DNA from: Saccostrea cucullata
Lineage: Eukaryota
Direction of reading: 5' to 3'
DNA: 63,822 bases
Assembly (NCBI RefSeq): GCF_032062105.1
Contig: NW_026920897.1
Span: forward strand, 179 to 64,000
Shown here: one piece after another, positions 8,424-60,599 of the stretch
Position numbering within the stretch: the first letter of the stretch is position 1
How the letters are laid out: each line of letters starts with the position of its first letter
The notes under the pieces: generated by a model
Database searches by the model: none
Seen by the model: only the letters and a program-made list of their open reading frames with translations
Told to the model about the DNA's origin: nothing
Translations under genes and position numbers: made by a program

Positions 8424-11386
8424 TTAACATTTTAAGCTACTGTGGTGAATGTAACGAAATTTCATCCAAAAACCAACTATGTTTGTAAGCAAATCTGGAA
8501 AATGATGGAGGATATGCTGGCACAATTCGAAATTAGAATTCATACAAGCAATGTGAAGAATATTACAACCATCCTTGTTTTTATGTGTCATGTCGACGCC
8601 TTTTTCTGCCAGAAGTTCTAAGATTTCAACATTTCCTCCTTGTGCAGCGCATAATGCGACATTCCATCCATTGTAATCTACCTGATTAAGCATGTCTGGG
8701 TAATAATGGATGATATGTTTACACATTTCTATATGAGAATGCTTACAGGCAATGTGAAGAATATTTTCACCTAGCCTGCTTTTATGTGTCATACTGACGC
8801 CCTTTTTTGCCAGAAGTTGAAGGATTTTAACATTTCCCCCAAATGCAGCGAATATTGCAGCATTCCATCCTTGAGCATTTATCTGCTTAAGCATATCTGG
8901 ATAATGTTGGATGATATGTTGACACATTTCTGATTTAGAATTGCTACAAGCAATGTGAAGAATGTTACTGCGATACTTGTTTTTATGTGTCGTGTCGACG
9001 ACATTTTCTGCTAGAAAGTCAAGAATTTCGACATTCCCTCCCTGTGCGGCGCATAATGTAGCATTCCATCCTTCATCATTTATCTGCTTAAGCATTTCTG
9101 GATAATGCTGGATGATATATTGGCACATTTCTAATTTAGAATAGAGACAGGCAACGTGAAGAATATTACTACCCACTTTGTTCTTATGTGTCGTGTCGAC
9201 GCCTTTTTCTGCGAGAATTCTTAAAATTTCAACATTTCCTCCTATTGCAGCGCATATTATAGCATTCGATCCCTCCGTATGTACCTCCTTCAGCAAATCT
9301 GGATAATGTTGAATGATATGTTGGCACATTTTTATTTTAGAATAGCTACAAGCAACCTGAAGAATATTAACGCCAAATTTGGTTTTATGTGTCATGTCGA
9401 CGCCATTTTCTGCCAGAAGTTCTAGAATTTCTACATTTCCTCCTTGTGCAGCAAATAATGCAGCATTCCATCCTCTATTATTTACTTGCTGAAGCATATC
9501 TGGATAATGTTTGATGATATGTTGGCACATTTCTGATTTAGCACCAGCACAGGCAATGTGAAGAATATTACTGCCAAGCTTGTTGTTATGTGTTATGTCT
9601 ACGCCTTTTTCTTCCAGAAGTTCTAGGATTTCAATATTCCCTCCTCGTGCAGCTGAAAATGCAGCATTCCATCCCGCAGTATTCATCTGCTGAAGCATGT
9701 CTGGATAATATTGGGTAATATGTTTGCACATTTCTAAGTTAGAATTCATGCAAGCAACGTGAAAAAGATTACCATCTACTTTGTTTTTATGTTTTATGGT
9801 GACTCCTTTTTCTGCCAGAAGTTCTAGAATTTCAACATTTCCACCAAAAGCGGTGCACATTGCAGAATTCCATCCCGCACAATCTACCTGATAAAGCATA
9901 TCTGGATGATATTTAATGATATATCTGCACACCTCCAATGTAGAATTCACACAAGCAATGTAAAGAATATTATTGTCAAACTTGTTTTTATGTGTCATGT
10001 CGACACCCTTTTCTTCCAAAAGTTCTAGAATTTCAACTCTTTCTCCTTGTGCAGCGCATAATGCAGCATTCCATCCTTCATAATCTACTTGCTTAAGCAT
10101 ATTTGGATAATGTTTTATGATATGTTGGCACATTTCTAATCGAGAATTAACACAAGCAATATGAAGAATATTTCTGCCACGTTTGTTTTTTTGTTTTATG
10201 TTAACACCTTTTTCTGCGAGAATTTCTAGAATAATAACGTTTCCACTTACGGTAGCGTACGATGCAGCATTCCATCCTTCATAATCCTCTTGTTTAAGTA
10301 TATCTGGGTAATGCTGAATGATATGTTGGCACATTTCTAATTTAGAATTGCTACAAGCAAGGTGAAGAATATTAACGTTATTTTTGTTTTTACATGTTAT
10401 GTCGACGCCTTTTTCTGTAAGAAGTTTTAGAATTTCAACATTTCCGCCTTGTGCAGCGTACAATGCAGCATTCCATCCATTATAATCAACCTGATGAAGC
10501 ATATCTGGATAATGTTGGATGGTATGTTGGCATATTTCTAATTTACAATTGCTACAAGCAATGTGGAGAATGTTACTGCCATACTTGTTTTTATGCGTCA
10601 TGTCGACGCCTTTTCCTCCAAGAAGTTGTAGAATTTCAATGTTCCCTCCCTGTGCGGCATACAATGCGGCATTCCATCCTTCATCATCTTCCTGCTTGAG
10701 CATATTTGGATAATATTGAATTATATGTTGGCACATTTTTAATTTAGAATTGCTACAAGCAACGTTAAGGATATTACTGCCATTCTTGTTTTTATGTGTC
10801 ATGTCGACGCCTTTTTCTGCCAGAAGTTGTAAAATTTGAATATTTCCTGCGTGTGCGGCGCAAAATGCAGCATTCCATCCTTTGGCATTCAACTGTTTCA
10901 GCATTTCTGGATAATGTTGGATGATATGTTGGCACATTTCCAATCGAGAATTCATACAAGCAATGTGAAAAATATCACTGTCAATTCTGTTCTTATATTT
11001 CAAGTCGACGCCATTTTCTGCCAGAAGTTCTAAGATTTCAACATTTCCTCCTTGTGCTGCACATAATGCTGCATTCCATCCATCATTATCTACCTGAAAA
11101 AGCATGGCTGGATAGCGATTAATGAGATATTTGCACATGTGTTTCTCCCCCGATTTACAGGCAATGTGAAGGCCTCCAGTTTTCACTTTACTTTCATAAA
11201 AACTGTTCATTTTTCTGGCCCTTGACTGTTCTGAAATGTCTCTTGGTTCTTCCTCTATATAATGTAACGATACATTCGGTTTACCATCCTTTTCTTTTGA
11301 CTTTTCTAAAAGTTTAATAATTTCATTATCTGAACTATTTTTTCTTGTTGGATCTCGGTTGCTGAGCGGATGTTTCTTATTACCAT
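8424..11386 (-). CDS. Terminal exon: juxtamembrane linker plus 27 ankyrin repeats of a predicted single-pass receptor
   Basis: 928-aa ORF with a 67-aa double-ankyrin unit (GWNAAL.AAQGGN.EIL / NILHIAC.NS.LEMC). The frame stays open 58 codons upstream of the ATG, to the acceptor TTGTTTCAG| at 11386 (phase 1). Confidence 0.93.
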
Positions 11387-56600: not shown

Positions 56601-56955
56601 TACCGGTCACGGTAGCCTAGTGGTAGAGCGTTCGCTTCGTGACCGGGAGGCCCGGGTTCGATTCTCGTTCGCGGCGCCGCGTCATACCTAAGACGTAAGT
56701 CGTGTAAAGGTAGTGACTGTTCCTTCGCCAGACGCTCGGCACTTGAAGTGAAAGTCACGGGTCTTTCGGATATGACCTTAAAAACGTAGGTCCCGTGTCA
56801 CGGTAGGCGCTGGCACGATAACGAACCCTCACTGCTCAATGGCCCTGAGTACCGAGTATAGGTCTAAATTTGAAGCCCTTCACCGGCATACGGTGACGTT
56901 TTCATATGAGTGAAAAATTCTCAAGAGGGACGTTAAAGAATATACAATCAATTAA
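56601..56955 (+). mobile_element. Full-length tRNA-derived SINE (Meta-like plus Deu-like domains)
   Basis: A box TAGCCTAGTGG, B box GGTTCGATTC. GTCATACC.AAGAC (Meta-like) and GTCTTTCGGAT...AGGTCCCGT (Deu-like) segments; domain names are from memory. 12-bp TSD TGTAATTGTCTT at 56589-600 and 56956-67. Confidence 0.9.
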
Positions 56956-57040
56956 TGTAATTGTCTTCCTTTATAAACCCGTTATCTAATCATGTAGTGC
57001 TCAAACATGTTGTAGCTGCCCCAAATTATTTACCTGTGTA

Positions 57041-58248
57041 CAGTGGCTACGACGTTATTGTTGACAACTTACACGAACGATCATGTTACACGAACGATTC
57101 CGCACGATTAACGCACGATTAAACCTGTTACAGGAACGATCCTTCACGCACACGATTCTACACGTTACACGATCTTACACAATTGCTAACGCAAACGCAC
57201 GATTATTCAATCAAAATAGTTCAAAATATTTAGGAATCGATATTTTCAAAACGAAATACGGTTTAATACTGATGATAGATTTCAAAGAATTATCACGATT
57301 ATTTCACCAACTTTGAAAAAAAAACTGCAATAGATATTTCTGGAACTAAATACAAGTAAGACTTATTTATCATTTTACATTATAAATAATTATTTTCTTA
57401 TTCTCCGACTTAAAAAAGCGATTTTTTTCCCGTTCTATCTGAAGATGTACATTTAGGTGGACCGTAAAATTTGATTGAATCGGATTTCATAATGTGTAAA
57501 ATATAGGGCGACATCATTCTAAAAAATGGCAGCATAGAATAACTTAAATTACAAGTTATATCCACGTTTCAATTGATTCAATGTTTGTGAATCTCTGAAA
57601 ATGAACTTACCAATTACTTAACTATTTTTTTTATTTGCAAAAATTTAAAAAAAAATTATAAAAAGTAAGGTCAAGAGATAAATACTGCTAGACAAAACCC
57701 CAAAAATCATGTCGTGTGCATGAACATTCGCCGACTTAATATCTATGTAAGCATTGAAAAATGTTTATTTATTTGTAAAAATATTAATTTTTGATGTATT
57801 AATTTTAAAAATGTATTGACCACAATTATCACTAAACAAGAATGAAAATCAGAAAAAAAAAACTGTTAAACATTCAATTACGGTTTATCGATCACAATAG
57901 TTCAAGTCCGCTATTTGACGAGAACATCATATTGTACGACTTACTATATTGATTGTTTACAAGAGATAATTAGTTCGTTCTGCATTCAACTATGTAAATT
58001 GCGCTTCATTCATTTTATTTGGATTTAAATAAAAAAAGACTCGGGAAATGCTTCTTAAACACATAACATTCCGATAAGAACTTACAAAACGGAATTTACA
58101 CGTTTCTAAACGCACGATCACGCACAATTAAAACCGCAAACGATTGAGTCTGATACACGCACGATCTCGCACGTTACACGAACGATCACGAACGATACAC
58201 GAACGATTCTACACGATTGGTTTGTCAACAATAATGTTGCAGCCACTG
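57041..58248. mobile_element. TA-flanked TIR element (Tc1/mariner-like MITE) with subterminal repeats
   Basis: TIRs CAGTGGCTACGACGTTATTGTTGACAA / TTGTCAACAATAATGTTGCAGCCACTG, TA flanks, and CACG(A/C)ACGAT repeats near both ends. Confidence 0.85.
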
Positions 58249-59028
58249 TACAGGGTAATAAATTCTCAAAATATTGATCATCTGCTGATCAGCTGATTGA
58301 CTCTCCATTGACTGTCACACTTCACAGCATAGGCGCTGATTAACTACTTGTTTGTTTAGCACAGTTCGCTTTCCTTCGAGGAATGCGAGATGCATGGCTG
58401 TCGTAGTATAAACACAATTAACTACTCAAGTGATTAAAAAAGTAGGTGTCAGGAAATGCAATAAAATTTAATCATAGCAAATGCCGATTTTAATCATGAC
58501 GCTGCTCATTTAACCACGGCACACATAAATTGTAACCATGGCGGACCGCCATGGTACATGTAAAACCCTTGTAGAGAACCCTGTGAGTAGTACTAGCAGC
58601 CTAGCCGGGTGGGTCAACTGAGTGCACTTTTTATGCAAATGAAGTCAAAAATACTGGATTCTTATTGGCTAAGCCGCTGGGTGGTTCAAGGGAGTGCAGG
58701 TTTGGGGCCTGGGGGGGGGGGTAGGTGGGTCAACTCAATACAGCCCCTGGGGTGGGGCTAGTTGGGTCAACTCAGTACAGCCCTGGGGTGTGGGGGTTAG
58801 GTGGGTACAGATCCCTGAGGGGGCTAGGGGGTTTACACTGTATATAGTTTTTTACTATACGCTGCTACTACGATTTGGCAGCGAGTCAAGAATGTGATTA
58901 TGACGTCACATCTTCATTCACAGTCAAAGCCAGCCGGTTTAAACTGGATTTTCTGAAAACAATAACACTAACACACAATACAGACAATAACAATGGAATC
59001 TTATTCAGAATCAAAATACATACATAAA

Positions 59029-59793
59029 TTACTTTTTCTTCTTCTGTGCCTTATCGGTCGTCAGGGACAGTTTCCTCTTGTGAGTAGTGCTGGTGCTGGG
59101 AATCTCTCTGTTGTTTTCCTGAGTCTTTTTCTCCTTTTTGTCTCCTTCTTTCACTAAGGGTTTGGTCTGGTGTGTCCCTGAGGTCCTGGGTTCTTGAAAC
59201 TTTTTCTCCAGTTTTTCTATTTCTTTTACGAATTGTTGATCCTCCTCATCCTCTGGACATTTATTAGCCCAATGGCCAAATTTCCCGCACTTGTAGCACA
59301 AATCCTCTATTTTTCTGGGGCAGTCTTGGGCCCAATGCCCCAACTCTTTACAGATGCAGCAGTCCGTCTGTCTTGTTTTCTTAGTACCTCCTGATCCCCC
59401 CTGTCCCTCTTTTTTTTTTTGGTAAGTGCTTCCTCCTCCTCTCTTTTTTTCTTGCATGTTAGTGACTTTCAATTCTGATTTGGACAATCTCCCTCGGATC
59501 AGAGCAAATTCACTGGTGTTGTAACTTTTCAGATCAGTCAGCTTGTTGTCAAGATCACTCACCTTCTTGTCAATATAATTCAGCTTGTTGTCAATACCAG
59601 TCAGCATGTTGACAATCCCATCCGGAGTTGTAGTCAAAATACCCATTTCTTCTTTATTCATGTATTCTGGAAGATTATACATGCCCAAGTCCAATCCCAC
59701 TTCATCCTGTGACTCTGGCTTGGGGGCTCCTACATACCCTTCAAGTGTCAAATAACTAGGTTTGTCTGGAGTATTCATCATTGCTTCTGCCAT
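59029..59793 (-). CDS. 254-aa coiled-coil protein with two CCHC zinc knuckles
   Basis: Intact ORF with good Kozak context (ATTATGG). Heptads IDNKLNYIDKKVSDLDNKLTDL. Knuckles CCICKELGHWAQDC and CYKCGKFGHWANKC. Basic C-terminus. Confidence 0.85.
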   Translation of the reverse strand: MAEAMMNTPDKPSYLTLEGYVGAPKPESQDEVGLDLGMYNLPEYMNKEEMGILTTTPDGIVNMLTGIDNKLNYIDKKVSDLDNKLTDLKSYNTSEFALIRGRLSKSELKVTNMQEKKRGGGSTYQKKKEGQGGSGGTKKTRQTDCCICKELGHWAQDCPRKIEDLCYKCGKFGHWANKCPEDEEDQQFVKEIEKLEKKFQEPRTSGTHQTKPLVKEGDKKEKKTQENNREIPSTSTTHKRKLSLTTDKAQKKKK

Positions 59794-60062
59794 AATATTT
59801 TCACGTCTGTCAAGTTCAAAATGTCAACGAAGACTGATCATCAAATCCCAGTTTTTCTTTATATACCTGTTGGATCTGTAAGGGTCGTGTGCATCAATAC
59901 GTTAGACTAACGTTTTGTCCCCCTCGCGCGCGCGTGCATCACCCTCGCTCGTTTCACCTACGTTTTTTTTTTCTGAGTCACTGAAACTGTGCGTTCTGTA
60001 TACGTCTCCAGAGGGGGTATAAATGAGAAAAAAGTCTGGTCCTTTCTCAACAATCGACAATC
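59794..60062. promoter_or_regulatory. Putative bidirectional promoter
   Basis: TATATAAA on the minus strand at 59858-65, TATAAAT on the plus strand at 60018-24, and a CpG tract CGCGCGCGCG between them. Confidence 0.55.
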
Positions 60063-60599
60063 ATGTCAACCCTTACACACACTCGCTCTCTGATTTTAGA
60101 TGGGTATGATTGTTTAGTGCGATGGGCACAGAACAACCAAGAAGTATTTTCACAAGCGAGCACTATTATGGAAACCACTCATGATTTGTAGTTACAATGC
60201 CTAGCCTTATCACATCATGCGACCATGGGGAGACTAGCTACAATACATTTCTTATGTCTATATATGAAAACAACTCTGCCCCAGAAATGGTTCGGACTGA
60301 GCCTGACCCATTCTTTCGGAAAGCCGTACAGTTTCCTGACCCATCCTCAAGCGGCAAAAGTGATTTTACTGTGGCAGGAAATAGATGCGATGGAGAAAGT
60401 ATGTATTCAATACGTAAAAAAAATGGCTGGAAATTTCACACAGGCTAGGAAATCAGTGACTTTTAATACCAGCCTCAATCAAATCTATGATTTGCCCCCC
60501 GAAGACCGGAGAAGTCCCTGGATGAAATTAGTAGCTGATCGAATACGATTCCGGAGGAGAATTCGTCAGTTAGAAGCTTTGGTAGTCTTTAAAAAATAA
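60063..60599 (+). CDS. PPP1R15/GADD34/ICP34.5/DP71L-like PP1-eIF2alpha adaptor; 178 codons with one in-frame TAG, or 124 aa from ATG 60225
   Basis: C-terminal RKSVTF (RVxF) and RRSPWMKLVADRIRFRRRI. ATG 60063 is in frame with 60225, with TAG at 60189-91. The stop codon overlaps AATAAA at 60595-600. Confidence 0.8.

Follow-up and report, generated by a model that had tools for sequence, protein, structure and literature searches.

A predicted PP1-binding core of the PPP1R15/DP71L type carried as cargo by a high-copy Maverick/Polinton family of the oyster Saccostrea cucullata

The window, the whole stretch of 63,822 nucleotides analysed here, is AT-rich animal DNA from the 1.17 Gb assembly of Saccostrea cucullata. 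Positions 58586-60895 hold a left-end fragment of a Maverick/Polinton element of about 2.3 kb, covered at 58582-60895 in blastn with sibling copies. Homology among the copies spans 58586 to about 60895, after which a dispersed repeat begins. The fragment opens with a terminal inverted repeat region (58586-58890, + strand) which starts with AGTAGT, contains GC-rich direct repeats of 37-44 nt (D4, D6 and D9) and matches both ends of other copies. A divergent element gene lies on the - strand at 59029-59793, encoding 254 aa with a coiled coil and two CCHC zinc knuckles (Pfam zf-CCHC, E 2e-9); its shared variants give a pN/pS of 0.39 (p 3e-7). The sequence between the divergent genes (59794-60062), with a TATAAA at 60018-60023, is a putative two-way promoter.

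Comparison with sibling copies identifies the remaining frames, all on the + strand. The start of an upstream overlapping frame (60063-60191), about 140 aa long in most copies, is ended here after 42 codons by a stop at 60189-60191. The long motif frame, which in the majority of copies measures about 167 aa, has its N-terminal part at 60122-60448; it too stops early, at 60182-60184, with a frameshift before the core; an 83-aa ORF (60197-60448) represents its middle part. The 124-aa ORF on which the original prediction was based (60225-60599) is shown by tblastn of both sibling frames against the window to be part upstream frame and part motif frame, joined at an A-run (60416-60423). The N-terminal region, described earlier as unrecognised, is the overlapping frame brought in by this frameshift and no true N-terminus. 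The 124-aa ORF is thus a two-frame hybrid and is ruled out as a genuine protein; 7 of the 92 copies examined are classed as hybrids. What is intact is a 58-aa PP1c_bdg core (60423-60599) with RKSVTF at 60447-60464, R at 60507, W at 60519, DRIRF, and RRRI to 60563, recognised by its profile score, its PPP1R15B register and purifying selection. Two AATAAA hexamers within 60595-60698 (60595-60600 and 60693-60698, + strand) are possible poly(A) signals. A copy on another contig (L002), 99% identical to that of the window, is broken likewise. The window copy is a degraded fragment, from which at most the 58-aa core could be made.

The rest of the element was not found in the window, nor in the next 10 kb of the contig, and no element-like ORF is listed in locus L043. 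Past the repeat that follows the fragment, no match to the other loci examined was found. This repeat of about 330 nt, SINE-like in size and spread, is present as two inverted copies of 96% identity (56602-56937 and 60901-61231), one of which abuts the broken end of the fragment. Other features of the region are a MITE-like element of 1.2 kb (57037-58252) bounded by terminal inverted repeats of 31 nt and with tandem repeats of 21 nt in subterminal position, a broken C1q-domain gene fragment (61748-61969, + strand; Pfam C1q, E 1.8e-6) and a long single-exon ankyrin-repeat ORF of 928 aa (8424-11210, - strand). A similar-looking ankyrin-repeat ORF of 674 aa lies just beyond the window (L043:6865-8889, - strand).

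In the translation of 60225-60599 (+), RKSVTF is followed by RRSPWMKLVADRIRFRRRI up to 60563, with the W 19 residues past the F, as had been read originally. The proposal of a PP1-binding core of the PPP1R15/ICP34.5/DP71L type is borne out by the profile search for which it called. Pfam PF10488 (PP1c_bdg) matches residues 69-118 of the 124-aa ORF with E 5.2e-6 and 26.7 bits, and the core alone, from the in-frame ATG at 60423, reaches 27.4 bits; both scores are marginal relative to the cut-off of 26.1. The intact sibling copy L029 scores 24.5 bits, under the cut-off. Among the matches listed for a sibling copy against PDB sequences (13 sequences, E up to 1) are PPP1R15B (4V0X, E 1.7e-5; also 4V0U) and DP71L (9NB9, E 8.1e-5). 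The anchors V, F, R (F+15), W (+4), F (+10) and I (+4) are in exact register with human PPP1R15B, and the sibling aligns with 4V0X without gaps from F to W and on to the last anchor. The F-to-W spacing is one residue shorter in DP71L and 21 in the oyster's own PPP1R15. As the spacing of 19 is identical in human PPP1R15B, it is no viral signature, and the suggestion that a short spacer resembles the viral forms does not hold.

The published eIF2alpha motif, as quoted in PMC5346070, is Rx[Gnl]x1-2Wxxx[Arlv]x[Dn][Rg]xRFxx[Rlvk][Ivc]; the window core fits it at every position except S for [Gnl]. The most invariant positions, both across 34 aligned relatives and among copies, are W, DR, F, R and I. 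The protein of this Polinton family stops 11 residues past the RI motif. Neither the second actin-binding helix known from GADD34/CReP nor the second of the two leucines in the DP71L LSAVL sequence is present in this family. At the first LSAVL-position leucine of most copies, the window copy has V.

Although described originally as an orphan, the ORF has many relatives in its own genome. Matches to the core occur at 150 or more places (the best 150 scored of 374 candidates), on 146 contigs and mostly with 78-93% identity. The 92 loci examined are the 20 with the best scores, another 12 that came from longer stretches or from the search for the family, and 60 sampled further down the list of matches. 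Among the 68 copies covering both starts, the long motif frame (typically 166-167 aa) is open in 50, the overlapping frame of about 140 aa, which starts 59 nt earlier, in 49, and both are open in 44. The anchor residues are in register without a stop in 75 of 92 copies. Of 89 distinct copies, no fewer than 87 retain any given one of the residues equivalent to V641, F643, R658, W662, F672 and I676 of CReP and to R595 of GADD34; for the V and F of the RVxF docking motif the number is 87 each.

The core is under purifying selection among variants common to several copies. The counts are based on 89 distinct copies, with two divergent ones left out, and a variant is called shared when present in three or more copies; pN/pS was calculated from counts of distinct variants and not from a tree-based codon model. 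Shared variants in the core number 16 synonymous and 15 non-synonymous with no stops (pN/pS 0.36, p 0.004), while private variants have a pN/pS of about 1.0 and include 10 stops. Shifted-frame controls for the core give 3.8 and 1.8. The value for the core is 0.29-0.36 across four reference copies, and the zinc-knuckle gene, used as a control, is similar at 0.39. Constraint confined to shared variants would be expected where the element requires the core while it replicates, with decay of the core setting in after insertion. In the overlap, the shared variants are distributed 21/20/20 over the codon positions, at a density like that of nearby non-coding DNA, and pN/pS is 0.8-1.0 in both frames. 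Shared stops in the two overlapping frames number 1 and 1 against expectations of 2.1 and 3.6 (third frame 7), a deficit that is not significant. Protein-level constraint is therefore shown for neither overlapping frame. The upstream frame of about 140 aa was also rejected as a conserved protein, with no Pfam, PHROG or convincing Atlas match.

It is almost certain that the ORF is cargo of a Maverick/Polinton. It lies 1.9 kb in from the left terminus of an element whose family numbers at least 150 copies. A sibling of about 23.6 kb on contig C15415 contains a RING ORF, a probable macrodomain protein, a protease, capsid candidates, an integrase, an A32 ATPase, an IAP and PolB. In sibling L031, the protein-primed PolB (DNA_pol_B_2, E 3.5e-58), the retroviral-like integrase (rve, E 1.3e-10) and the packaging ATPase (Pox_A32, E 1e-5) are recognised by Pfam. 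The cysteine protease is of the adenain type, as a profile of five proteases including that of this family matches ASFV S273R (E 1e-7) and adenain (E 1.3e-5). An AlphaFold model of a capsid homologue from another family in the genome (mean pLDDT 56) matches the PBCV-1, mavirus and Sputnik capsids (E 5e-11), and the capsid candidate of the motif-ORF family is 30% identical to this homologue (E 7e-62). Through this modelled relative, a double-jelly-roll major capsid protein is probable in the motif-ORF family. A 325-aa minor capsid (penton) candidate has no Pfam or PHROG match; related ORFs occur in metagenomic Polintons.

The termini of the family are likewise those of Polintons. Terminal inverted repeats starting with AG are found at both ends in C15415 and C15541. 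The C15541 copy spans 18.8 kb from terminus to terminus, with the motif gene at one end and a target-site duplication matching at 5 of 6 positions; in a 5-kb palindromic derivative in C22297, the 6-bp duplication matches at 6 of 6. Counting an exact 17-base pattern of the terminus gave 68 occurrences, and its reversed control none. A protease gene lies 2.5-12 kb downstream on the other strand at no fewer than 66 of the 150 listed motif places. The family is young, as 36 of the 150 listed proteases are identical in protein. Rearranged Polinton derivatives of palindromic structure comprise a 5.7-kb inverted duplication with a LINE piece (G000:C5614:137192-156328; L036, L037) and a 5.1-kb self-inverted element (L173) with a perfect 6-bp target-site duplication.

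Several other genes of the family deserve mention. A BIR and RING inhibitor-of-apoptosis protein (L031:5924-6457, - strand; BIR, E 2.8e-20) is a second likely counter-defence gene. In most copies the motif gene is followed directly by a fast-diverging, proline-rich RING ORF (L030:206-739, + strand), which is missing from the window fragment. A 167-aa element protein (L030:2773-3276, - strand; L012:27-530) matches PHROG 335 (E 6e-16) and has no Pfam or PDB sequence match; we take it to be the probable macrodomain protein, so named on the basis of a motif. Protein P0018 appears to fuse the mini-PPP1R15 core to the start of the probable macrodomain.

The cellular PPP1R15 of the oyster is found elsewhere (L058, L059); it is spliced, its first exon is long, and the RVxF motif has an exon of its own. 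This motif exon is 98% identical to a 606-aa NCBI protein of Saccostrea cucullata, compared with 37% to the Polinton core. The original view of a viral-like gene distinct from the cellular orthologue is therefore supported. Identity of the ORF with the host's PPP1R15, whether as the orthologue or as a recent retrocopy, has a negligible probability. Membership of the same Pfam family would agree with such an origin, as would the AU test, in which joining the motif-ORF family with cellular PPP1R15 is not rejected (p 0.15). However, the cellular locus is separate and only distantly similar, and the ORF is intronless, multicopy and placed inside terminal inverted repeats; the orthologue itself is ruled out on these grounds. 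The phylogeny proposed at the outset gave a divided answer. In the domain tree (47 rows and 69 columns, 5 rows without the motif having been dropped), most rows of Polinton context fall on a branch apart from the cellular and large-virus forms (35 rows, 95/86), but the joint clade with cellular PPP1R15 stands unrejected, and L161, of Polinton context, falls outside the branch. The origin that fits best would be an old capture, with the gene spreading afterwards from one Polinton to another.

The same type of gene is present in other Polintons. A PF10488 profile search of the oyster genome gave 29 matches. Six further top matches are ORFs of 67-82 aa, and all four of those tested score above the Pfam cut-off. 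L056, L061 and L063 adjoin integrase, capsid, protease, ATPase and PolB genes and represent three more Polinton families, with PolBs 28-47% identical to that of the motif-ORF family; L060 and L062 are near-copies of L061 and L063, and the flank of L057 is too short to place. Versions in these other families reach further past the RI motif, and together with those on metagenome Polinton contigs they measure 65-90 aa. In public assemblies, the profile search found 79 short relatives of 41-138 aa. Polinton hallmark genes lie beside the ORF by tblastn at 8 of 17 metagenome loci, several of which are near-duplicates and some 1-kb contigs; L155 has a near-full set, and at L157 tblastn found no hallmark genes. 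The PolB of metagenome locus L168 has an endonuclease VII domain, unlike the oyster PolBs.

Among free viral contigs in IMG/VR, the first profile found none and the second only two large-DNA-virus contigs. These two, of 174 and 232 kb, encode PPP1R15-type proteins of 116 and 150 aa with an F-to-W spacing of 25 (L152:9869-10219 and L153:9770-10222). Weak leads from the Atlas (0.88-0.89) point to small viral clusters of PP1c_bdg type. IMG/VR contigs, several of them labelled as giant-virus assemblies, carry PP1-like catalytic subunits without introns, at 50-60% identity to animal PP1 (L180:1336-2292, L181:1222-2265). CARD and double PC4 fusion proteins are encoded in other Polinton families (L138:1108-2118, - strand; L133:1185-2201, + strand), and their relatives adjoin the mini-PPP1R15 gene in metagenome loci (L154, L155). 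The IAP or CARD-PC4 genes in some of these elements fit a counter-defence role. The main point, which the original prediction missed, is that the ORF is a broken hybrid copy of a high-copy Maverick/Polinton cargo gene that recurs in other families.

Three oligo-dT runs of the same species label, of 1.6-1.9 billion bases each, placed 170, 83 and 109 reads on the 2.4-kb element end; these lie in both orientations and form modest peaks over the two genes. Because there are hundreds of genomic copies, DNA carry-over could explain these reads. Splicing that would join the two frames was rejected, as neither three poly(A) runs nor a contig set showed a GT-AG joint, at low depth. The low RNA signal is one point in favour of a passenger, for which a piece of host mRNA would have been taken up a single time and since multiplied passively, or of domesticated copies that now serve the oyster rather than the element. 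The youth of the family is another, since intact frames then prove little. This reading is nevertheless very unlikely. Selection is evident in shared and not in private variants, Polintons whose polymerases differ widely, the endonuclease-VII-bearing type among them, carry the gene as well, and its N-terminal region is not common to oyster PPP1R15.

The reading preferred here, with a probability of roughly 0.7, is that the core would serve as a PP1 adaptor which reverses eIF2alpha phosphorylation and so keeps the proteins of the element translated. The Polinton core likely docks on host PP1 via its RVxF motif. Once docked, it would steer PP1 to dephosphorylate eIF2alpha, and translation of element proteins would likely go on when the host eIF2alpha kinases fire. 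PP1 binding, substrate choice and actin recruitment would be expected by analogy with the solved PPP1R15 and DP71L complexes. In PPP1R15B, V641 and F643 are reported to dock on PP1 and R658 to bind a PP1 pocket, while W662, F672 and I676 contribute to actin recruitment and to the choice of substrate (PMC10743859). A 71-aa form of DP71L that consists of these motifs alone has been reported to suppress signalling from all four eIF2alpha kinases (bioRxiv 2025.02.28.640897), and oyster PERK to be induced by poly(I:C) (PMC9680061). The benefit to the element would presumably fall in a replicative or infectious phase.

With its short tail, without the second actin helix and without a full LSAVL, the core may be weakly active or act as a decoy. 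In the latter case it would be a PP1-binding or retargeting subunit that sequesters PP1 or aims it elsewhere than at eIF2alpha, for which the loss of half of LSAVL and of the C-terminal actin helix, together with S in place of the G of RxGxW, can be cited. The second leucine of the DP71L LSAVL is described as important for activity, and DP71L mutants without this region as binding PP1, losing activity and possibly sequestering it (PMC5346070). Such a role is unlikely, however, as the residues tied to eIF2alpha and actin (W, DR, F, R and I) are the most invariant ones and longer tails are kept in other Polinton families.

It is a long-standing question whether Polintons function as viruses or are no more than transposons. 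Herpesviruses and African swine fever virus use the same type of gene to defeat translational shut-off. A gene that is under selection in replicating lineages and common to distant Polinton families offers testable evidence that these elements fight antiviral or stress responses. A tentative extension, about which doubt prevails, is that an ISR antagonist may be a widespread and old gene of animal Polintons of both polymerase types, with a uORF-type switch in this family. The out-of-frame overlapping upstream ORF would, in the manner of ATF4 and GADD34, switch the antagonist on when eIF2alpha is phosphorylated. If widespread, such an antagonist would mean that Polintons go through a phase of expression resembling infection, against which eIF2alpha kinases act. 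The oyster germ line carries at least 150 copies of this potential suppressor of the stress response. Many natural candidate PP1 adaptors of 60-90 aa are also made available for dissecting the residues behind eIF2alpha specificity, and adaptors of the PPP1R15 type are now studied as stress-response modulators (bioRxiv 2025.02.28.640897).

Literature term searches, with most subscription papers outside their scope, found no report of a Polinton carrying a gene of the DP71L, PPP1R15, ICP34.5 or GADD34 type. The terms 'phosphatase' and 'PP1' were not found in the main text of the Polinton papers PMC8502044 and PMC11131425. The 391-protein table of bioRxiv 2025.02.28.640897, which lay outside the search, may already list some such ORFs as animal proteins. 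A counter-defence protein of the GADD34/DP71L type is of a known viral kind; the Polinton carrier is new as far as the literature was searched.

Compared with known systems, the gene is closest in form to DP71L of ASFV (9NB9) and ICP34.5 of HSV-1, being small, intronless and composed mainly of RVxF and W-DR-RF-RI. Long and short forms are also a feature of DP71L, for which 184 and 70-72 aa are given in PMC5346070. The Polinton version differs from both in being carried in the germ line by an integrating element of about 19-24 kb at 150 or more places, and in its shorter C-terminal tail, its S for G and an N-terminal extension overlapped by a second frame. With cellular PPP1R15A/GADD34, PPP1R15B/CReP and oyster PPP1R15 it shares the anchors, and its spacing is identical to that of human PPP1R15B. 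Those proteins have an acidic N-terminal region of 500 residues, an intron and a second actin helix, whereas the Polinton core is without them. Mavericks are reported in all mollusc genomes analysed in PMC10294476. The oyster family resembles other Maverick/Polinton elements (polintoviruses, adintoviruses) in its pPolB, RVE integrase, A32 ATPase, adenain-like protease, probable double-jelly-roll capsid fold, AG-start repeats and 6-bp duplication, and differs from them in having a putative PP1/eIF2alpha regulator as cargo.
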